NCBI GenBank assembly: GCA_002423325.1
Contig: DIVQ01000208.1
Location: 1,983-38,038, forward strand
DNA length: 36,056 nt
DNA from: Anaerolineales bacterium UBA6128
GTDB lineage: Bacteria > Chloroflexota > Anaerolineae > UBA1429
Reading direction: 5' to 3'
Part shown: positions 1,528 through 13,733 of the stretch, one piece after another
Layout of the letters: every line of letters starts with the position of its first letter
How positions within the stretch are numbered: the first letter of the stretch is position 1
The notes under the pieces: generated by a model
Seen by the model: the letters and a program-made list of their open reading frames with translations, nothing else
The model's database searches: none
What the model was told of the DNA's origin: nothing
Program-made: the position numbers and the translations under genes

Positions 1528-2229
1528 ATGACGCAGCAAGCGCATCAATTGGCTGTACGCATCAGCAGGACGGTCAAGCTCGACTACTGGCTGCACCTGC
1601 CGGATGGCTATGGTGAGGACGCGTCCGTCTCGTGGCCGCTGATCATCTTTTTGCACGGCATGGGCGAGCGCGGCAGCGATCTGACGCTGGTCAAGAAGCA
1701 TGGCATCCCCAAGGTCGCAGAGCAGGGCCCCGATCTGCCCTTTGTGGCGGTCTCGCCGCAATGCCCGCTCGACTCGGTCTGGACCGATCAAATCGACGCC
1801 CTGGACGCGCTGTACCGCAATATCGCCCGGCACTATGCCATCGACCGCGACCGCGTCTACCTGACGGGGCTGAGCATGGGCGGCTATGGCACTTGGCACT
1901 GGGCGACCTTGCGTCCGCGCCGTTTCGCCGCGATCGTGCCCATCTGCGGGGGGGCCATGGCGCCCTACGGCTACCCTGAGCGCGTCGCGGTGCTCAATGA
2001 TGTGCCGGTGTGGGCCTTTCACGGGGCCAGAGACCAGGTTGTGCCGCTGGCCGAGTCGCAAAAGCTGGTCGACGTGCTGGAGCGTGCGGGTGGCAACGTC
2101 CGCCTGACCGTCTACCCCGAGGCGGGCCACGACGCCTGGACCGAGACCTACGCCAATCCAGAGCTCTACGCCTGGCTGCTGGCGCAGTCGCGTGCCGCGC
2201 GTAGCGGCGCTGGCAGGTCGCGCGGGTGA
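1528..2229 (+). CDS. alpha/beta hydrolase, phospholipase/carboxylesterase (PHB-depolymerase-like esterase) family
   Basis: ATG is preceded by TAAGGAG. Contains 'LIIFLHGMGERG' (oxyanion region), the nucleophile elbow 'GLSMGGYG', 'FHGARDQVVP' (Asp) and 'GHDAW' (His), which together make a catalytic-triad layout. Confidence 0.75.
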   Translation: MTQQAHQLAVRISRTVKLDYWLHLPDGYGEDASVSWPLIIFLHGMGERGSDLTLVKKHGIPKVAEQGPDLPFVAVSPQCPLDSVWTDQIDALDALYRNIARHYAIDRDRVYLTGLSMGGYGTWHWATLRPRRFAAIVPICGGAMAPYGYPERVAVLNDVPVWAFHGARDQVVPLAESQKLVDVLERAGGNVRLTVYPEAGHDAWTETYANPELYAWLLAQSRAARSGAGRSRG

Positions 2230-2972
2230 CGGAGGCCTCACTCGTCAACGGGATCGGGCAACTGCGTGAGCGCTCGCTGCACGCAGCACTCTGCGAGTGG
2301 TGCTGCGAACCCGGCGACGCGCGCGAGGTAGAGATCGACGGCTATCGTATCGACGTGCTGCGCGGCGATCTGCTGATCGAAGTACAGACGGGCAACTTTG
2401 GCGCGTTGCGCGCCAAGCTGTCGCGCCTGCTGCAAACCCATCCTGTCCTGCTCGTGCACCCCATTCCGCTGGCCAAGTGGATCGTGCGGCTGCCCGTGGA
2501 TCCTGATGGCGTCTCGGTGCGGCGCAAGTCTCCCCGCCATGGGCGCGTCACCGACCTGTACGACGAACTGGTGCACATTCCCACGCTGACCACCCACCCG
2601 CGTTTGCAGTTGATGGTGGTGTACATCCGCGAAGAAGAGTACTGGAAGGCGGACGGCAAGGGCAGCTGGCGGCGCAAGGGCGTCAGCATCGTGGACCGCC
2701 GGTTGCTCGAGATAGTGGATACACACACCTTTGGCAGCACCGCGGATCACGCCGCGCTGCTGCCCGAGGGGCTGGATGCGTTCACCGCCCGTGACCTCTC
2801 GCAGGCGCTCAAGATTCGGCTGCCGCAGGCGCGCCGCGTGGTCTATTGCCTGCACAAGATGGGGGAGCTGGAGCAAGACGGCAAACGGGGAAGAGAGCGG
2901 GTGTGGCGAAGGGCGGGCACGCACCGCGATGACAGCGGGAGGCCCGCGTCTACAGTTTCCGCACACCCATAG
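2226..2972 (+). CDS. hypothetical protein; putative PD-(D/E)xK-like (E..D..E-x-Q variant) nuclease-fold N-terminal domain plus C-terminal winged-helix-like domain
   Basis: GTG start overlaps the esterase stop (GTGA at 2226-2229). 'YRIDVLRGDLLIEVQTGNF' resembles the D..ExQ core of CoiA-type restriction-endonuclease-fold proteins. The C-terminal 'FTARDLSQALKIRLPQARRVVYCLHKMGELEQDGKRG' looks like a wHTH. The functional call is inference. Confidence 0.5.
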   Translation: MTEASLVNGIGQLRERSLHAALCEWCCEPGDAREVEIDGYRIDVLRGDLLIEVQTGNFGALRAKLSRLLQTHPVLLVHPIPLAKWIVRLPVDPDGVSVRRKSPRHGRVTDLYDELVHIPTLTTHPRLQLMVVYIREEEYWKADGKGSWRRKGVSIVDRRLLEIVDTHTFGSTADHAALLPEGLDAFTARDLSQALKIRLPQARRVVYCLHKMGELEQDGKRGRERVWRRAGTHRDDSGRPASTVSAHP

Positions 2973-3043
2973 TTGGTAGCACATTCTCATTGCCTTCAGT
3001 CGGGGCTGCACGGAATGCGAGCGCCTCAGCCTAGCGTTTCAGT

Positions 3044-3673
3044 TCACTCTTTTTGCCATTTAAATGGCTCGGTATCAGGATAATCTCTCATATACTCGGT
3101 CATCTCCTCTTTGTTGAGTGCATACCATTCGTCGTATGGGTAACGGCGAAAAAACTCGCCTATGCGCTCTCGAAAATGTTCCTCGGCGATAGTGTTCAAT
3201 CGCCCATGTCTGAAAGACCTAAGGCTTTCCAAGTCCTCACGCGGCACACGGAGTGTCGCTGGAAAATCGACTGCCATCTTGTCCGAGAAGCCGATTTGGG
3301 TACTAGGAGGCAGGTAGAACCACTTTTGGTTTATCCGTGCGTGTTGAGTGAGGATATCCTTCCAACTCTTTGCTTTTTTCGTTTCCTTGCTCTTTCCCTC
3401 CACATCACGAAACTCGCGGATCTCGCAGAGCGTGATATCGCGGCTGCGACGAGCATCACAGTCCTGAGTGGCCACGATTGCCGCTACCACACGTACTGGC
3501 ACAATGATGCTAAGTGGGTCGCGCTGCTCTGCCAGGTCCTGCCATTTCGTAACGCGGCTACCTGTTTCGTCTGCGAGGATGACCTCCTGAAGCGAGATGT
3601 CGATTCTGGGTATCCCAAAGAAGATATCCCCTTGGCGGATTGGGTCGTCCAGATCTGGGAAATCGTAGATCAT
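3044..3673 (-). CDS. hypothetical protein (209 aa), third gene of the low-GC operon; no family recognised
   Basis: I chose ATG at 3673 rather than the ORF-track start at 3712. It is preceded by GGGAGGAGGGTGG and overlaps the upstream stop as ATGA. The product has balanced, charged, globular-looking composition (MIYDFPDLDDPIRQGDIFF..ATQDCD..). GC is about 42-50%. Confidence 0.7.
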   Translation of the reverse strand: MIYDFPDLDDPIRQGDIFFGIPRIDISLQEVILADETGSRVTKWQDLAEQRDPLSIIVPVRVVAAIVATQDCDARRSRDITLCEIREFRDVEGKSKETKKAKSWKDILTQHARINQKWFYLPPSTQIGFSDKMAVDFPATLRVPREDLESLRSFRHGRLNTIAEEHFRERIGEFFRRYPYDEWYALNKEEMTEYMRDYPDTEPFKWQKE

Positions 3674-4050
3674 CCACCCTCCTCCCACTGCATGCCGCGT
3701 TTCGCCTCCCATTCGACGATTTCTGCGCGTTCACGTTCTGCGCGCTCTAGAATGGTCCGAGAGAGAAGTAATGCTGCCGCCCACGAGATCGGTCTTCCGG
3801 ACAATCTAGGGCTTACCCACGTAACTACCGATGCATCGCGTCGCCGTCGCTCCCATGACCACAAGTCGGGAATCGCGGTGGCAGGCGATGCGGCAATACC
3901 GAGGACCACTCCTGCAACCAGCACGAATCGAGGAAGTCGCCAGATGGTATCCGGTCTCGTGACATAGCTCTGGCTCCAGAGGCCTGACGCAGATACATCG
4001 GTCTCAGTCGATCCTATCTGGAGGTCCTTAGTTGCAGAACCGCTACTCAC
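3670..4050 (-). CDS. small hypothetical protein (126 aa) with a predicted transmembrane segment; middle gene of the low-GC operon
   Basis: GTG start at 4050 overlaps the upstream TAG stop (4043-4045) by 8 nt, and its stop overlaps the downstream ATG (ATGA). It has a hydrophobic stretch 'LPRFVLVAGVVLGIAASPATAI' and a charged C-terminus 'ERAERERAEIVEWEAKRG'. There is no internal ATG, and coding status is unverified. Confidence 0.45.
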   Translation of the reverse strand: MSSGSATKDLQIGSTETDVSASGLWSQSYVTRPDTIWRLPRFVLVAGVVLGIAASPATAIPDLWSWERRRRDASVVTWVSPRLSGRPISWAAALLLSRTILERAERERAEIVEWEAKRGMQWEEGG

Positions 4051-4822
4051 CAGAGAACCTCCTTTCCAGTTCGCCTTCTATTAGCTTGAAGAACCAGTCG
4101 TCTGTTAGTTCGTGGGCTTGGTCCAACCACTCCGAGAAGCCATCAGGAAGTGCTGGGATGCTACTATGTGTTGCTTGAACTAGTGTTTCCCATATTAGAG
4201 CTTGTTTTTCCTTGTGATTTCCGACGGCGAATCTCAGAGTCATTAGGCCTCCTGGGCTGTCATTCGGAAAGGAGGCTTGCCAGTTAAAAGCCGCAGGGGT
4301 CTGCCCAACTCGCTCGCCGTCGAACAAAGTATCGGGTAATGAGATGTGGGTATTCATTTTGTCCTTAAGGAATTCAAAAACACTCTCCTGACTGAAATCC
4401 ACGTTCACAGCGTCTATGTAGCGCAGTGTTAGCTCTTGGATCATGAGCTGTTCTTTGGCAGGGTGGGCACTGAATAACCAGTCTACAGCTCTCACGCAAC
4501 GTTCCTTGAAGTCGGTCCAGATATACGCATCGGTTTCATTCACAGTCATCAGGCCCGGACCAACCTGGATGAGTGGCCATCCACCGTCTGAAGTGCGGAA
4601 CCGATGCTGTACCATATGAGCTACCATGGCATCGGGGATTTGGGCGGTTGGCAGCGCCTCGTGGAAGGGATATTCGCCCTCCACCCTTTCTGAAAGACGC
4701 CCAAGCAAGAGCCTGTAGTGCGGATCTTCTTGGATGCCTGGCGTCTTTGAGACAGGCAGTTGCCATTTCACCTCCAGAAGGGCCTCAACCAACGGCTTGT
4801 TCTTCAGGTTTTTCTTTTTCAT
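4043..4822 (-). CDS. TIGR04255-family protein (conserved hypothetical, function unknown); first gene of the low-GC operon
   Basis: ATG at 4822 is preceded by AAGAGGT. The N-terminus 'KNKPLVEALLEVKWQLP' matches my recollection of the TIGR04255 N-terminal signature (x-PL-x-E-x-x-x-E-h-x-F/W), and the length of about 260 aa fits. GC is about 45-52%. Confidence 0.65.
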   Translation of the reverse strand: MKKKNLKNKPLVEALLEVKWQLPVSKTPGIQEDPHYRLLLGRLSERVEGEYPFHEALPTAQIPDAMVAHMVQHRFRTSDGGWPLIQVGPGLMTVNETDAYIWTDFKERCVRAVDWLFSAHPAKEQLMIQELTLRYIDAVNVDFSQESVFEFLKDKMNTHISLPDTLFDGERVGQTPAAFNWQASFPNDSPGGLMTLRFAVGNHKEKQALIWETLVQATHSSIPALPDGFSEWLDQAHELTDDWFFKLIEGELERRFSGE

Positions 4823-4967
4823 TTCAACCTCTTATCTTTGCCAAGTTGCCATCCCAACAGCTTGTGCGCACATAGGGAGGCTTCTCCTTTGCATCACCAC
4901 GCGATCCAGCTCGGGCACCGCCTTATTTCGCATATTCGGCCACCGACCGTAGGCGTTGTTGGCTGCT

Positions 4968-4995
4968 ATCATATATCTGTAGCGTACTTCGTCAA
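4968..4995 (-). promoter_or_regulatory. sigma70-type promoter of the low-GC three-gene operon
   Basis: Minus strand reads TTGACG - 16 nt - TATGAT. It lies about 145 nt upstream of the ATG at 4822. Confidence 0.5.
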
Positions 4996-5086
4996 GCCGA
5001 ATTGCCAAAACGTCAACATGGCACGCCGGCGGACAAAATGCCGTGCCGCCAAGCGGCGACTCGCTGGCCTGACTTGTCCACTCCTT

Positions 5087-6040
5087 CTAGTTCACCACGT
5101 TCTGCGGCTTGCCCGCGGCAAAGGCCTTGATGTTGTCGAGGGTCGTCTGCAGCAGGCGGGCGCGCGCCGAGCGCGTGGCCCACGAGATGTGCGGCGTGAT
5201 GTGGCAGTTGTCCAGCGTGTAGAGCGGGTTGTCCAGCGCGGGCGGCTCCACCTCCAGCACGTCCAGACCGGCGCCGGTGATCGTGCCCGCCTTGAGCGCC
5301 TCGTACAGGTCGTGCTCGTTGATCACGGGTCCGCGGCTGGTGTTGATCAGAAAGGCCGTGGGCTTCATCATGCCCAGCAGGCGCGCGCTGACGAGCCCCT
5401 GGGTCTCGGGCGTCAGCGGCGAGTGCAGCGTGACCACGTCGCTCTGGCTGAACAGCGTGTCGATGTCCACAAAGCAGACGTTGTCGTCGTCGCACTCGCG
5501 CACATAGGCGTCGTAGGCCAGGACCTTCATTCCGGAGGCTTTGGCCAGCACGGCCACCTGGCGTCCGATGCGGCCAAAGCCAAAGATGCCCATCGTCAGT
5601 CCCTCTAGCTCAATGAGCGGATAGTCCCAGTAGCAGAAGGACGTGCTGCGGCTCCAGCGGCCGTCGCGCACGGTCTGCGCGTGATGGGCCACATGCTGGG
5701 TGAACTCGAGCAGGTGCGCAAAGACCATCTGCGCCACCGACTGCGTGCCATAGGTGGGCACGTTGGAGACCGGAATGCCGCGCTCGCGGCACGCTGCCAC
5801 GTCCACGATGTTGTAGCCCGTGGCGAGCACGCTGACAAAGCGCAGCGCGGGCAGCTGCTCCAGCGCCTCGCGGGTGACCAGCACCTTGTTGGTGAGGACC
5901 ACGTCAGCCTCTGCGGCCACGCGGACGACATCCTCGTTCGGCGTGTTGTCATAGATGGCGCATTCCCCGAGCGCACGCAGATCATCCCAGCTCAGGTCGC
6001 CGGGATTCAAGGTGTAGCCATCGAGTACGACAATGTTCAT
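5087..6040 (-). CDS. D-isomer-specific 2-hydroxyacid dehydrogenase (glycerate dehydrogenase/hydroxypyruvate reductase-like)
   Basis: ATG is preceded by AAGGAG. Contains the NAD-binding 'GIFGFGRIGRQVA' and the catalytic region 'NTSRGPVINE..' and 'ITPHISWAT'. The N-terminus 'MNIVVLDGYTLNPGDLSW' is typical of HprA-like enzymes. Confidence 0.85.
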   Translation of the reverse strand: MNIVVLDGYTLNPGDLSWDDLRALGECAIYDNTPNEDVVRVAAEADVVLTNKVLVTREALEQLPALRFVSVLATGYNIVDVAACRERGIPVSNVPTYGTQSVAQMVFAHLLEFTQHVAHHAQTVRDGRWSRSTSFCYWDYPLIELEGLTMGIFGFGRIGRQVAVLAKASGMKVLAYDAYVRECDDDNVCFVDIDTLFSQSDVVTLHSPLTPETQGLVSARLLGMMKPTAFLINTSRGPVINEHDLYEALKAGTITGAGLDVLEVEPPALDNPLYTLDNCHITPHISWATRSARARLLQTTLDNIKAFAAGKPQNVVN

Positions 6041-7163: not shown

Positions 7164-7671
7164 CCGTCGCGCTGGGTGAGGCGCTGGCTGTAGCCGTTGG
7201 GGTGAGCGTCGCGGTGCTGGTGTGTGTGGCGGTTGGCGTGCGCGTTGCGCTGGGCGTAGAGGTGTGGATCGGCACCTCTGGCGCTGGCGTGCCTGTCGGC
7301 GCGGCCAGCAGTGGGGCGCGCGTCTGGATGGTGCCCACCGGCGATCCGCTGACCGGCGTGGCTTCAATGACGGGCAGCAGCGGGGTATAGTAGCGCGTCT
7401 GCACGGCAATGATCGTGCCGGCCGGGCCCATCAGCATGGCCGGGGCTGGTGTAGACGAAGCTGTTGCCGTCGGCGTCCACGTGGGTAAGGGTGTGCGCGC
7501 CGTCGCCCACGGGGCCGTGGGCGATGGCGCAAGAGGAGTTGGCGTCGTCGCCAGGCGGGTGATCAGCCGGCATCCCTGCAGGACCAGCGCCGCCAGGCAC
7601 ACGGCGATCAACGCCCGGCGTGTGCGCGCCGCGCGGTAAGCGACCGGCGAGGCGCTTCTTCGCATCCGCAT
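7153..7671 (-). CDS. putative lipoprotein with a Thr/Pro-rich low-complexity region
   Basis: I chose ATG at 7671 (MRMRRSAS..), preceded by GAGAGGAA. It has a signal peptide with the lipobox 'LVLQGC', and the remainder is TPTAT-type low complexity. The 3' end overlaps the DUF368 3' end by 11 nt. A high-GC artefact cannot be excluded. Confidence 0.45.
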   Translation of the reverse strand: MRMRRSASPVAYRAARTRRALIAVCLAALVLQGCRLITRLATTPTPLAPSPTAPWATARTPLPTWTPTATASSTPAPAMLMGPAGTIIAVQTRYYTPLLPVIEATPVSGSPVGTIQTRAPLLAAPTGTPAPEVPIHTSTPSATRTPTATHTSTATLTPTATASASPSATATP

Positions 7672-7736
7672 TTGGCTGTTCCTCTCGTCCCGGATCGGAT
7701 CTCCTCGGATCCTGCGCCAAGCCATTCGCAGTGTGC

Positions 7737-9411: not shown

Positions 9412-12400
9412 ATGGATTCGCGCATCATCAGGAGCAAACTGGATGCCATTCGCACCAGCATTTTGACGCAGCGCTGGCCGATCGGCGGCTGGGAAGCGCG
9501 TACGGCGACCTTCCGTGCCGTGGGCGACTATAAGTACGATGGCGACTGGCACGCGGTGGATGCGGATTCGGTGTGGCCGGCGGGGCGCACGCTGTTTCTG
9601 CGAACGCAGGCCCCTACGCCAGAGGGCGCTTCTGCGAGCAACCTCTGCATCGAGTTCAGCATCGAGCAACTGGAGGGCTTGCTGAGCGTCAACGGCCGCC
9701 CGTATGCCGGCATCGACGGGCCGCATCCGCGCGTGCAGGTTCCGGACACGGGTATGCTGCGCCTCGAGGCCGAGTTCAACTGCGTGCCTGCGGCCAGCTG
9801 GGAGCCCGGGATGCGCAACGAACGAGCACGTCTGCGGGGCGTCGATTTCGTGCGCGTGGATCCCGAGGCACAGGCAGCCTACTATGATCTCTGGTTCGCG
9901 TGGGAAGTCAGCCGCTTCGCCAAGGATGAGCGCCGCCGCACGCTGCTGCACGCCGCACTTGAAGAGGCGCTGCTGGCGGTGGATCTGCAGGGCAGTCGCG
10001 CGGAGTTGGCGCAGGACCTGACGCGCGCCCGGGCCGTGCTGGCCCAGCGTGTGGGTGCCCTTGCGCCCGACCCAGAGGCGGGCAGCGTGTTCCTCACCGG
10101 GCACTCGCACATCGACGTCGCCTGGCTCTGGCCGCTGCGCGAGAAGGTGCGCAAGTGCGGCCGGACCTTTTCCACCGCCTGCCGCCTGCTGGAGCGTCAC
10201 CCCGACTATTACTTTTCGTGCAGTCAGCCGCAACTGTATGCCTATACCAAGGCGCATTACCCGGCGCTGTATGACGAGATCAAAAAGTGGGTACGCACGG
10301 GACGCTGGGCCTGTTCCGGCGGCATGTGGGTCGAGTCGGACTGCAACGTGCCCTCGGGCGAGTCGCTCGTGCGCCAAGTCCTGCATGGCGTCGGCTTTTT
10401 CGAGCGCGAGTTCGGCGTGCGCCCGCGCAGCCTCTGGCTGCCTGATGTGTTTGGCTATCCCGGGTCGTTGCCCGGTATCCTGGTGGGTTGTGGTCTGACC
10501 AACTTTTTCACCTGCAAGCTGCACTGGCAGGCGCGCAACGAATTCCCGGTCAACCTCTTTTGGTGGGAGGGCGTGGACGGGTCGCGACTGGTGGCGCACA
10601 TCCCGCGCCTGCGCGACATGTATAACGGCACGCCGAATCCGGAGCAGTTGCACATCGCCTGGGACAACTATCACCAGAAGGACGTCTATCCCGAGGTGCT
10701 GATGCCCTTTGGCTACGGTGACGGCGGTGGGGGCCCCACCGATGACATGCTCGAGTTCGCCGCGCGCGCCAAGCGCTATCCCGGCGTGCCCGACACGCGA
10801 CAGGGGCCTGAGGAGCGCTACTTTGACGGCGCGCGCAAGGTTGGCGCGGACCTGCCCAGTTGGGTGGGCGAGTTGTACCTGGAGACGCACCGCGGCACCT
10901 ACACCACCCACGCCGAGATCAAGCGCGCCAACCGCAAGAACGAGCTGGCCTTGCGCGATGCGGAACTGCTCGGCGCGCTGGCAAACGCACAGGGCGCGCA
11001 GGTCGACATGACGTCCCTGCAGGAGGCCTGGTCGAATCTGTTGCTGCTGCAGTTCCACGACATCCTCCCGGGCAGCTCGATTGGCCAAGTTTACCGCGAG
11101 GCGGCCGCCGATCACGCGCGCATCCATGCGACGGCGTTGGCGGTGCGCGATCGCGCCCTCGGAGCGCTTGCCGCACGGGTCAACACGTCGGCTCAGATGC
11201 TGCTGGTCAACAGCCTTTCGTGGGGCCGCCGGGACGTGGCGCACGTCCACGTGCCGTCTCTGGGGCTGGACTGGCGCGCGCCAATTGAGGTGCTGCACGA
11301 CACCGGCCAGGCCGTGCCTGCGCAGGTGGTGAGCGGGGGCGAGACGGGCGTGGAGGTCGTGTTTGCGCCCGGTGAGGTGCCGTCGCTCGGCTACCGCAGC
11401 ATCTCTGTGCAGCAGGCCCAGGAGGAGCCGCAGACGTCTCTGCAGGCCGACGGGCTGCGGCTCGAGAGCCGCTACTATGTTCTGCAGTTGGCGGAGGATG
11501 GCTCGATCGCCCAGCTGTTCGACAAGCGCGCGGCCCGAGAGGTGCTGCCCGAGGGCCAGGCTGCCAACCTGCTGCAGCTCTTCCAGGATGGGCCCGAGCG
11601 TGAGGCGGCTTGGAACGTGCACGCCACGCTGGACAAGCGCCAATACGCCTGGGACCCCGGTACGAGTGTTCGGGTGCTGGAGACCGGCCCCGTGCGTCTG
11701 GTGGTGCGCATCGCGCGACACTATCGGGGCAGCACGTTGGTGCAGGACCTGGTGCTGTACGATCAATCGCCGCGCATCGATTTCGTCACGCAGGCGAACT
11801 GGCAGGCGCGGCAGGTGCTGCTCAAGGTGGCCTTCCCCGTGGAGGTGCGCGCCACTGAGGCGACCTACGAGATCCAGTTCGGCGCAATCACACGGCCGAC
11901 GCATCGTAATACTTCCTGGGAGCAGGAAAAGTTCGAGGTCTGCGGCCATCGCTGGGTGGACTTGTCGGAGGCGGGCTATGGCGTGAGCCTGCTGAACGAC
12001 TGCAAGTACGGGCACGACGTCAGCGGCAATGTGCTGCGTCTGACGTTGTTGCGCGGCACTGAACGTCCCGATCCCGACGCCGATCGCGGCGAGCATCGTT
12101 TCACCTACGCGCTGCTGCCTCATGAGGGCGACTGGCGCTATGCTGAGACGGTGCGGCGCGCCGCCGAGCTGAACGTGCCATTGCTGTGCGTGCCGGCGTC
12201 CGGCTGCGCGGGCGACCTGCCCGCGGCGCATTCCTTCCTGAGCGTGGAGGGACCGGCCATCCTGGAGACGGTCAAGCCGGCAGAGGACGGGGACGGTCTG
12301 ATCCTGCGGCTGTATGAGCCCAACGGGGGACGCGGTCGCGTGCGGGTGCGCACCAGGGCGCGTCTGGGCGCTGTGACGGAGTGTAGCCATCTGGAGGAGG

Positions 12401-12489
12401 CGCGGTCTGAGGTCGTGGCCGAGGCTTCCTCGTTCGGTTTCCACATCAAGCCGTTCCAGGCGCGCACGTTCCGCGTGCGTTTGCGCTAG
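9412..12489 (+). CDS. glycoside hydrolase family 38 alpha-mannosidase
   Basis: I chose ATG at 9412, preceded by AGGAGGCAGAG. The upstream part of the 8179 ORF is antisense to the kinase. 'GHSHIDVAWLWP', 'FSCSQPQLY' and 'WLPDVFGY' are GH38 hallmarks. Length is 1025 aa. Confidence 0.9.
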   Translation: MDSRIIRSKLDAIRTSILTQRWPIGGWEARTATFRAVGDYKYDGDWHAVDADSVWPAGRTLFLRTQAPTPEGASASNLCIEFSIEQLEGLLSVNGRPYAGIDGPHPRVQVPDTGMLRLEAEFNCVPAASWEPGMRNERARLRGVDFVRVDPEAQAAYYDLWFAWEVSRFAKDERRRTLLHAALEEALLAVDLQGSRAELAQDLTRARAVLAQRVGALAPDPEAGSVFLTGHSHIDVAWLWPLREKVRKCGRTFSTACRLLERHPDYYFSCSQPQLYAYTKAHYPALYDEIKKWVRTGRWACSGGMWVESDCNVPSGESLVRQVLHGVGFFEREFGVRPRSLWLPDVFGYPGSLPGILVGCGLTNFFTCKLHWQARNEFPVNLFWWEGVDGSRLVAHIPRLRDMYNGTPNPEQLHIAWDNYHQKDVYPEVLMPFGYGDGGGGPTDDMLEFAARAKRYPGVPDTRQGPEERYFDGARKVGADLPSWVGELYLETHRGTYTTHAEIKRANRKNELALRDAELLGALANAQGAQVDMTSLQEAWSNLLLLQFHDILPGSSIGQVYREAAADHARIHATALAVRDRALGALAARVNTSAQMLLVNSLSWGRRDVAHVHVPSLGLDWRAPIEVLHDTGQAVPAQVVSGGETGVEVVFAPGEVPSLGYRSISVQQAQEEPQTSLQADGLRLESRYYVLQLAEDGSIAQLFDKRAAREVLPEGQAANLLQLFQDGPEREAAWNVHATLDKRQYAWDPGTSVRVLETGPVRLVVRIARHYRGSTLVQDLVLYDQSPRIDFVTQANWQARQVLLKVAFPVEVRATEATYEIQFGAITRPTHRNTSWEQEKFEVCGHRWVDLSEAGYGVSLLNDCKYGHDVSGNVLRLTLLRGTERPDPDADRGEHRFTYALLPHEGDWRYAETVRRAAELNVPLLCVPASGCAGDLPAAHSFLSVEGPAILETVKPAEDGDGLILRLYEPNGGRGRVRVRTRARLGAVTECSHLEEARSEVVAEASSFGFHIKPFQARTFRVRLR

Positions 12490-12551
12490 AGCGCGACCCG
12501 CTTGAGGCTGAGTTTGGCAGCGTTGCCGACTACGTTCAGAGGAGAGGATCG

Positions 12552-13733
12552 ATGACCGCAAATGTGCGGGTAGGGTTGATTGGATCCGGCTTCGCCGCGG
12601 CGTTTCACGCGCGGGCCTACCGGCTGATCAGGGACATTGACGTAGAGATCGTGGGCGTGGCCGCTTCGGCACTGGGCAGCGCGCAGCGCTTTGCCGCCGA
12701 GCACGGCATCGCGGACGCGTATGGCGAAGCCCAGGCGCTGATCGCGCGGGCCGATGTGAACGTCGTCGATCTGTGCGTGCCGAATCGGCTGCACGAGCCG
12801 CTGGCCCTGGCCGCGATGGCCGCGGGCAAGCACGTGATCTGCGAAAAGCCGCTGACGGGCTATTTCGGCGGCGCGCAGGCGGCCGATCCGGTCGGCAAGA
12901 CGGCGCGGGCTACGATGTATGCGGAGGCTGTGGCCAGCGCGCAGCGCATGCTGGCGGCCGAACGCGCGTATGGCGTGCGCCTGATGTACGCAGAGAACTG
13001 GTTGCACAGCCCGGCGGTCGTCAAGGCCGATCGGCTGGCGGCCGCCAGCGGCGGCACGATCCTGGAGATCCGCGGCCAGGAGTGCCACAGCGGGTCACAC
13101 GCCGAGTATGCGCGCGAGTGGGCTCAGGCGGGCGGCGGTTCGCTGTTGCGGCTGGGAAGCCATCCCCTGTGCGCCGCGCTGTGGCTGAAGCGGGAGGAAG
13201 GCCTGCGGCGCGACGGGCGGCCCATCGGTGTGCGGTCAGTGATGGCCGAGTGCACGGACCTGAGCCGCGTGCCCTCGTTCAGAGCCGAGTCGCCGCACTA
13301 TCTCGTCGACGCCTGGCACGATGTCGAGAACTGGAGCAGCGTTCTGCTGACGTTTGAGGATGACACTCGCGCCATCATCGAGGCCTCGGACATTGTGCTG
13401 GGCGGGATGGATGATTCGCTGACGCTGATGCTCTCGAACGCGCGGGTGGACTGCAAGTTGAGTCTCAATAACGCGCTCACGGCCTTTGCGCCCACCCACG
13501 AGACCTTTGGCGACGAGTACCTGTTGGAAAAGTCGAGCACCAAGGCGGGTTGGAGCCACGTCAGCGTCGACGAAGAGTTCCTGCTGGGTTACCCGCAAGA
13601 GATCCGCGACTGTGTGGAGAGCGTGGCCCACGACCGTCCGGCGCGCGGCACATCCCAACTGGGGTTGGATGTGGTGCGCGTGATCTATGCCGCCTACCGC
13701 TCGGCCGAAGAGGGGCGCCGCATCGCGCTCTAG
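12552..13733 (+). CDS. Gfo/Idh/MocA family oxidoreductase
   Basis: ATG is preceded by GAGGAGAGG. Contains the Rossmann motif 'VRVGLIGSGFAAAFHARAY' and the 'ICEKPL' motif. Confidence 0.85.
   Translation: MTANVRVGLIGSGFAAAFHARAYRLIRDIDVEIVGVAASALGSAQRFAAEHGIADAYGEAQALIARADVNVVDLCVPNRLHEPLALAAMAAGKHVICEKPLTGYFGGAQAADPVGKTARATMYAEAVASAQRMLAAERAYGVRLMYAENWLHSPAVVKADRLAAASGGTILEIRGQECHSGSHAEYAREWAQAGGGSLLRLGSHPLCAALWLKREEGLRRDGRPIGVRSVMAECTDLSRVPSFRAESPHYLVDAWHDVENWSSVLLTFEDDTRAIIEASDIVLGGMDDSLTLMLSNARVDCKLSLNNALTAFAPTHETFGDEYLLEKSSTKAGWSHVSVDEEFLLGYPQEIRDCVESVAHDRPARGTSQLGLDVVRVIYAAYRSAEEGRRIAL

Follow-up and report, generated by a model that had tools for sequence, protein, structure and literature searches.

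A TIGR04255 protein heads a candidate three-gene toxin-antitoxin cassette with exchangeable toxins

Here, we describe a compact three-gene cassette in a 36,056-nucleotide (nt) stretch of DNA (the window) from Anaerolineales bacterium UBA6128 (NCBI GenBank assembly GCA_002423325.1, contig DIVQ01000208.1, positions 1,983 to 38,038 of the forward strand). Reading of the open reading frames (ORFs) of the window gives three overlapping ORFs on the minus strand, named A, B and C from 5' to 3', which comparative evidence suggests to be a tripartite toxin-antitoxin-type module. The coding features of the cassette, in window positions and with protein lengths in amino acids (aa), are:

4043-4822, minus strand: gene A, ATG start, 259 aa, TIGR04255 family; proposed accessory component (chaperone, adaptor or sensor)
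4043-4050, minus strand: 8-nt overlap of A and B, GTGAGTAG, with the GTG of B (4050-4048) and the TAG of A (4045-4043)
3670-4050, minus strand: gene B, GTG start, 126 aa, a two-module protein; proposed antitoxin
3678-3685, minus strand: Shine-Dalgarno sequence of C, GGAGGAGG, 5 nt 5' of the C ATG and inside the last codons of B (W-E-E)
3670-3673, minus strand: 4-nt overlap of B and C, ATGA, in which the TGA of B is shared with the ATG of C
3044-3673, minus strand: gene C, 209 aa, with a MazF/PemK/CcdB-like core, a helical insertion and a C-terminal extension; proposed toxin

An earlier note on this DNA, made from the sequence alone, had described three minus-strand genes joined by an 8-nt and an ATGA overlap with a Shine-Dalgarno sequence in the last codons of B, and our reading of the ORFs and junctions agrees with it. 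A longer, 222-aa version of C starting at 3712 is not supported, given that all homologues begin with M-I-Y. The overlaps are kept across many phyla, the 8-nt one in 27 and the 4-nt one in 21 of the 30 loci with junctions read, and both are hence far above chance. In line with the type II toxin-antitoxin arrangement, a small coupled gene lies immediately 5' of the proposed toxin gene, joined to it by ATGA in those 21 loci. Most loci read have a TGGGAGGA-like sequence at the ribosome-binding position of C. The QWEE end of B is encoded by TGGGAGGAG (window 3678-3690; equivalents in the related loci L001-L040), which is also the Shine-Dalgarno sequence of C. Given that the same bases serve as codons and as ribosome-binding site, any conservation at this site applies to protein motif and translation signal alike.

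The three genes travel together. A, B and C stand in the same order in 34 species-level genome loci and in three contexts found by exact protein look-up; trios with these overlaps recur in more than ten phyla, which include Latescibacteria, Desulfobacterota, Nitrospirota, Planctomycetota, Pseudomonadota, Synergistota and Myxococcota. The flanking genes vary between loci, which indicates that the three genes have been transferred horizontally as one unit. An independent metagenome scan seeded with A gave 80 loci, 64 of them with sufficient downstream sequence, and a C-family gene lies 300-500 nt downstream in 47 of the 64. Scattered homologues would have spoken against the joint system proposed in the earlier note; the trio is found together in nearly all loci examined. 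The same note had called C an orphan, which no longer holds: 994 clusters match C at an expect value (E) of 1e-3 or better, with 55-83% identity and from very different phyla, and 1,140 clusters match A. In a profile search of 1.84 billion representative proteins C gives only 286 clusters and no remoter relatives, which marks its family as compact and strongly constrained. The homologue search for B retrieved only 10 proteins, compared with about 1,000 each for A and C, and we attribute this to fast divergence and missed gene calls, not to absence of the gene. Gene B, with its GTG start and an overlap at either end, is uncalled in several public assemblies, including those that carry the window locus (window 3670-4050; L002, L004, L005 and L125-L127). 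C was not found in a plasmid collection, nor in IMG/VR by a pattern scan, and A was not found in a phage collection; only distant relatives of A were recovered, on two plasmids and two viral contigs.

None of A, B and C has a match in Pfam or PADLOC-DB v2.0.0 at E≤0.1, which agrees with the earlier note, where the cassette could be matched to no named defence system. For C, NCBIfam gave no match either, and neither did a comparison with the Protein Data Bank (PDB) by sequence and by profile, nor a search of 82 members of its family against Pfam at E≤1, the PemK profile PF02452 and the CcdB profile included; alignment of C by hhalign with MazF sequences reached a probability below 1%. The AlphaFold2 model of C (predicted local distance difference test, pLDDT, 83; predicted template modelling score, pTM, 0.75) has the SH3-like barrel fold of MazF, Kid and CcdB. 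Its top 50 Foldseek matches in the PDB are all MazF, MoxT, CcdB or CptN (E from 1.5e-3, probability 0.98-1.0, the best at 1.0, template modelling (TM) score about 0.6 on the target), and the named proteins among its eight best matches in BFVD, a viral structure library, are all PemK-like or endoribonuclease. C is about twice the size of MazF, the additional sequence being a helical insertion at about residues 88-118 and the C-terminal extension. The structure search that the earlier note had proposed as a check thus returns a MazF/PemK/CcdB-like fold for C and no ordinary metabolic assignment. On the strength of the model we regard C as a candidate toxin of MazF fold, with endoribonuclease activity as its probable function.

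Conserved across the whole C family are QGDI (residues 14-17), Q70-x-C72-D73, YLP (120-122), R155, H166-x-R168 and R177. We dropped R61-P62 as an equivalent of the MazF catalytic arginine, given that R61 is not conserved in the wider family. The invariant or nearly invariant residues, among them D16, C72, D73 and H166, would also suit an enzyme other than an RNase, for example a Cys-His hydrolase, and the acidity of C is shared with CcdB, itself among the fold matches, so that a CcdB-like gyrase poison may be considered as well. In either case the module would still be toxin-antitoxin-like but with another target. We regard a non-RNase activity as unlikely, given that the fold matches are mostly MazF-type RNases and that most of the toxins replacing C in related cassettes are RNases too, namely PemK, PIN and HEPN. 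One 218-aa homologue of C (P0110) carries the JGI name 'antitoxin (DNA-binding transcriptional repressor) of toxin-antitoxin stability system', a role opposite to that of the proposed toxin; the name is probably an annotation artefact, and all other named homologues are 'hypothetical protein'.

The gene in third position is exchanged between loci behind a constant A. Seventeen metagenome loci lack C, and in 15 of them the third gene is a toxin, Pfam-confirmed or closely similar. Nine have A, a B-like protein and a canonical PemK/MazF (Pfam scores of 46.6 and 42.8 bits for the two tested), five have A, a 182-aa protein and a PIN/VapC toxin (52.8 bits), and one has A followed by DUF433 and DUF5615, a known toxin-antitoxin pair; in the other two the downstream genes were not identified. 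The Thermus brockianus plasmid pTB1 (L041:5995-7689) carries a distant A with a 192-aa ORF and then a HEPN protein (27 bits) behind it. The presence of alternative toxins in third position identifies this position as a toxin slot. The HEPN ORF of pTB1 (7297-7689) is missing from the listed annotation of the plasmid, and the same region also holds VapBC, a DNA methylase, an Argonaute PAZ-domain protein and Cas6.

Two pairs of loci capture the exchange at close range. The A proteins of L075 (PemK-type) and L102 (C-type) are 95% identical, and those of L122 (PIN-type) and L117 (a divergent C subtype) 92%. At the DNA level, L075 and L102 are mostly 100% identical in the upstream flank (92-97% at its far end), and identity stays at 100% until two thirds of the way through A; it then falls off over the remaining third of the gene, is at random level over B and the toxin gene, and recovers to 93-98% downstream. 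The near-identical flanks indicate one chromosomal locus with a replaced warhead. Between L122 and L117 the identity, 88-100%, extends over A only and breaks at the A/B junction. With C, PemK and PIN toxins all found behind A proteins that are 92-95% identical, A behaves as a modular, toxin-agnostic accessory protein with interchangeable warheads.

The protein between A and the toxin is chimeric, with an N-terminal module that is constant within a clade of A and a C-terminal module that changes with the toxin. B consists of an A-linked N-terminal module of about 80 aa, in which RRRR follows a hydrophobic segment (about residues 42-60), and a toxin-linked C-terminal helix of about 45 aa that ends in QWEE. 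Over the first 75 or so residues C-type B is 44% identical to the middle protein of PemK-type cassettes (E 3e-21), and the C-termini are unrelated. The same holds in a second A clade, in which the PIN-type and C-subtype middle proteins share 38% identity over about the first 86 residues (E 3e-8) and are unrelated in the remainder. In the alignment of B across loci, the N-terminus is variable and the C-terminal helix (ISRxEALRIARQILExAERERL...GIQWEE) is the most conserved part. Two gammaproteobacterial loci carry a natural deletion in frame, which fuses residues 1-50 of A to residues 84-124 of B and leaves C intact:

L022:5508-6433 and L023:9630-10636: A-B fusion by deletion

Such a fusion is expected if the C-terminus of B alone neutralises C once the A-dependent element has been lost. 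Taken together, the toxin swaps, the chimeric middle proteins and the deletion point to C as the toxin, to the C-terminal module of B as its specific neutraliser and to the N-terminal module of B as the part that goes with A. In L023 a HigB/HigA-like pair lies directly upstream of the deletion variant, and in L022 IetA/IetS are nearby.

The earlier note had described B as a small membrane protein. The window copy has a strongly hydrophobic segment, with a Kyte-Doolittle 19-residue mean of 2.17, but this character is not kept across the family. Followed as it is by RRRR, the segment fits the positive-inside rule, and B could on this basis be a holin-like, depolarising membrane effector with A and C as its sensor or regulator. 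Most homologues, however, reach a 19-residue maximum of only 1.2-1.9, and the segment is absent in L010, L029, L039 and L040 (below 1.1), which makes a conserved transmembrane role of B doubtful. The equivalent segment is polar in PemK-type middle proteins, the most conserved part of B is the soluble C-terminal helix, and the third position is held by classical cytoplasmic toxins, so that we consider a membrane effector very improbable and B as the antitoxin the better reading.

The assignment of A to TIGR04255, made in the earlier note, is firm: A scores 119.2 bits (E 2.5e-34) over positions 2-251 of the 252 in the NCBIfam profile, for which the curated cut-off is 30 bits. Its AlphaFold2 model (pLDDT 90.8) consists of two beta-alpha-beta4-alpha repeats, that is, a TBP-like double repeat, and Foldseek places TBP and further proteins of TBP-like or helix-grip fold at the top, the Eag/SciW chaperones among them, all at low TM-scores. 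We therefore did not assign A to the TBP, START, AdoMetDC or Eag families. A has no match in the PDB by sequence or by profile. Membership of the SecB family (PF02556) was rejected, given an hhalign probability of 0.2% between the A profile and SecB and no SecB among the top 50 fold matches.

Two roles for A have to be weighed against each other. In the tripartite modules paaR-paaA-parE and omega-epsilon-zeta, the first gene supplies the DNA binding that is absent from the antitoxin, and A could likewise be a transcriptional autoregulator like PaaR or omega. This is the main rival to a guardian role: A is encoded first, B has no DNA-binding domain recognisable in a Pfam search, and the best fold match of A is the DNA-binding TBP (probability 0.96). 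Yet the TM-score to TBP is only 0.27-0.36, A is acidic (isoelectric point, pI, 5.2), A also precedes DUF433-type antitoxins, which are themselves helix-turn-helix-like, and autoregulation gives no reason for the N-terminal module of the middle protein to vary with the clade of A. Hence we think an autoregulator quite unlikely. The specific role of A as a guardian or chaperone of B is itself put forward tentatively.

In the window, the composition of the cassette is clearly foreign, as the earlier note had stated, and marks it as horizontally acquired: its GC content is 52.6% compared with 65.0% for the remaining window, and the GC content at third codon positions (GC3) is 0.55-0.58 in the cassette genes and 0.81-0.89 in the flanking genes. 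The features surrounding the genes are:

about 3000-5090, no strand assigned: low-GC island of acquired DNA, delimited by a 100-nt GC profile and GC3
4968-4995, minus strand: candidate sigma-70-like promoter TTGACG-16-TATGAT, 10/12 matches, on the correct strand in the 264-nt gap 5' of A
4823-4967, minus strand: leader of about 145 nt between the candidate promoter and the start of A

Of the promoter claimed in the earlier note, the site itself is present. About 1.1 sites as good are expected by chance in the scanned stretch, and its function as promoter of the cassette is therefore plausible but unproven. The leader has no Rfam match, and in BREX-embedded relatives A starts only about 57 nt after the preceding gene, which indicates that a long leader is not a conserved feature. 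No convincing terminal repeats, tRNA or Rfam RNA were found at the flanks of the island, and no integrase within 10 kilobases (kb) of it. The neighbours within 10 kb are an ABC transporter, a hydrolase, a DUF8091 protein, a 2-hydroxyacid dehydrogenase, a Rieske protein, a GHMP kinase and a GH38 enzyme, and there are no components of BREX type 3 or Hma among them.

The DUF8091 neighbour (248 aa, 2226-2972, plus strand) is the nuclease-like gene that the earlier note had counted in favour of a defence cassette. Its match to PF26351 (DUF8091) comes from a precomputed Pfam table, and a direct hmmscan against our Pfam copy gave no match at E≤0.1. Given its native GC3 and its 4-nt overlap with the upstream hydrolase gene, it belongs to the host, and given its absence from all of the more than 120 related loci, we rejected it as a part of the system. 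Hence two of the four arguments in the earlier note, the membrane component and the nuclease-like neighbour, fail, and the other two, the compact coupled operon and the foreign composition, hold.

Elsewhere, the cassette often lies inside defence operons. In four lineages (L007-L010) it is embedded in BREX type 3, in the order BrxC-x-PglXI-[ABC]-(BrxHI)-PglZ-BrxA, and in L011 and L016 the order is HmaA-[ABC]-HmaB-HmaC. Hma is a defence system that has been validated experimentally in Halomonas (PMC11232893). Of the 80 metagenome loci, many of them on short contigs, 21 have Hma, BREX type 3 or IetA neighbours, and the slot between HmaA and HmaB is taken by both C-type and PemK-type cassettes. 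Other defence neighbours are IetA/IetS, MADS components, PD-T4-6, PDC-S13 and a type I specificity subunit. When 10 large neighbouring ORFs were compared with PADLOC, nine were not defence genes, which shows that the association with defence is frequent and not universal. The cassette also has viral relatives: divergent A-B-C trios adjoin terminase genes on two viral (proviral) contigs, and their C proteins match the C profile with an hhalign probability of 94.7% (E 6e-8). In a plasmid prophage of Pantoea sp. Lij88 (L042:5983-7831) a distant A (24% identity) lies between the lysis and small terminase genes, a site typical of prophage accessory or defence genes.

Some related loci show further arrangements. 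The A of L042 is accompanied by two genes (189 and 149 aa) that match neither B, C nor Pfam, and L088 may carry a similar pair. In Candidatus Electronema (L006:9919-10380) a SecB-family gene lies two genes downstream of A-B-C and may be a separate module of the toxin-antitoxin-chaperone (TAC) type or a coincidence. In a Planctomycetia lineage seen in many samples (L003:8707-11631, L050:5856-6971) the gene immediately after the cassette encodes an AAA ATPase and the next one a 586-aa protein; the block of cassette and AAA ATPase recurs in the metagenome set, and one of the two IetA matches of the bulk PADLOC scan probably stems from this ATPase. In Pyrinomonadaceae and other Acidobacteriota (L031, L032, L034-L037; for example L034:10001-11182 and 11256-12956) the C domain occurs without A or B, fused to a C-terminal extension of about 100-220 aa; a HerA/DUF87 ATPase (142 bits) comes next in at least four of these loci. 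They look as if they carry a distinct HerA-effector system of two genes, in which the C domain is reused.

Several known systems offer points of comparison. In TAC systems a third protein that guards an element of the antitoxin can act as phage sensor, and in the SecB-type the chaperone guards the antitoxin and the warheads are exchangeable (bioRxiv 10.1101/2024.02.24.581848; PMC11618068; PMC5105189). Like SecB-dependent TAC (Mycobacterium tuberculosis HigBA-SecB, Escherichia coli HigBAC and CmdTAC; PMC5105189, PMC6377645), the cassette has three genes, a toxin-agnostic third protein with interchangeable toxin-antitoxin warheads, and an antitoxin with a separable extra element beside its neutralising part, and both are associated with defence. 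The deletion in L022 and L023 also appears to leave a two-gene pair, as do deletions of the chaperone-addiction element in TAC. The third protein of TAC is SecB, whereas A is not and its chaperone role is proposed by comparison. Hence the cassette would work like a TAC system and is not a member of that family.

With MazEF/PemIK (Kid-Kis), the cassette shares the core fold of C and a small upstream gene overlapping through ATGA, and in sister cassettes canonical PemK replaces C. Unlike those toxins, C is twice as large, has other conserved residues and matches neither PF02452 nor any sequence that it was compared with; B has no relationship to MazE or PemI, and there is a third gene. GajC of type II Gabija (PMC13069673) resembles C, by the description of its fold, in having a MazF-like core with inserted helices, but its partner is a UvrD helicase, whereas the partners of C are an antitoxin and a TIGR04255 protein. 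The Eag/SciW (DUF1795) effector chaperones of the type VI secretion system (T6SS), which are among the fold matches of A, bind hydrophobic N-terminal segments of their clients, as we propose for A on B; the TM-scores between them and A are only 0.12-0.24, their sequences are unrelated to A, and the cassette has no T6SS context. BREX and BREX-related (Hma-like) loci carry auxiliary effectors such as HEPN, PIN and Schlafen proteins (PMC12839542), and the cassette likewise sits in slots within BREX type 3 and Hma operons but also occurs alone. Neither MazF/PemK nor TIGR04255 comes up in the main text of that paper, and our literature search found no paper that mentions TIGR04255 or CHP04255, or this gene arrangement.

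From these comparisons we infer a mechanism in which C would be the toxin, with a fold of the MazF/PemK/CcdB superfamily, and the C-terminal helix of B (about residues 85-126, ending in QWEE) would bind and neutralise it. The N-terminal 80 or so residues of B would be a separate element working with A, and A, as the toxin-agnostic accessory, would bind this partly hydrophobic element and control the stability or folding of B. If A were titrated away by a phage product competing for it, or if expression of the operon or the host were shut off, B would be lost, C would be freed and growth would stop. That C and B are the toxin and the antitoxin of a toxin-antitoxin-type module we hold to be probable, and on balance we favour the full explanation, in which the cassette is a tripartite and horizontally mobile module of this type.

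A number of observations weigh against this explanation. The likeness of C to MazF comes from fold comparison, with all sequence routes negative, and the Foldseek E is about 1e-3; normalised to C itself, which is twice as long as MazF, the TM-score is only 0.37. The conserved Q-x-C-D and H-x-R of C do not map onto known catalytic residues of MazF. C is acidic (pI 5.3), and an acidic pI is unusual for an RNase. The fold matches of A are weak (TM-scores of 0.2-0.36) and give no function, and contact between A and B is suggested by co-variation of their modules only. The addiction element of TAC antitoxins is C-terminal, whereas the putative one in B is N-terminal (about residues 1-80), and the gene order accessory-antitoxin-toxin differs from that of TAC. 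Finally, the window neighbours of the cassette are housekeeping genes, and many loci elsewhere, L001 included, have ordinary neighbours and no known defence gene nearby.

Given the frequent embedding in Hma and BREX type 3 operons, a role as abortive-infection back-up and/or in addiction of defence islands is likely. The main rival concerns this role and not the mechanism, and is compatible with a toxin-antitoxin module: the cassette could be a selfish addiction or stabilisation element that has no direct anti-phage activity, rides in defence islands and prophages and guards these against loss. Horizontal acquisition with a foreign GC content would suit such an element, as would residence in large, costly defence operons and the solitary position among housekeeping genes in the window and in L001. 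Alternative warheads, though, reuse exactly the HmaA-HmaB and post-PglXI slots and so resemble the auxiliary effectors of BREX-related systems (PMC12839542), and we rate a purely selfish element as rather unlikely. The proposal of the earlier note, an undescribed coupled unit of the toxin-antitoxin, abortive-infection or defence kind, gains support from the co-occurrence of the three genes, the predicted fold of C, the replacement of the toxin and the embedding in BREX type 3 and Hma. A broader possibility, which we raise with considerable reserve, is that TIGR04255 proteins are a widespread, unrecognised class of toxin-antitoxin guardians. They would be non-SecB adaptors or chaperones that hold an N-terminal addiction element, serve as infection sensors for C, PemK, PIN, HEPN and DUF5615 warheads, and provide an abortive-infection back-up in Hma, BREX type 3 and prophages.

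Toxin-antitoxin modules, including three-part ones, are already known; new here are the accessory family, the toxin family and the natural chimeras. TIGR04255 is a curated and widely distributed family without an assigned function, and from the comparative evidence it now has a definite role that can be tested, namely that of the unchanging gene at the head of three-gene toxin-antitoxin cassettes in which recombination swaps the toxins. If true, this would be a second, independently evolved version of the toxin-antitoxin-chaperone design, which to our knowledge is so far known only with SecB. It would also add a new MazF-fold toxin family of about 1,000 clusters for which there is no Pfam model, account for an insert that recurs without annotation in Hma and BREX type 3 loci, and draw attention to B, an antitoxin gene frequently overlooked by gene callers.

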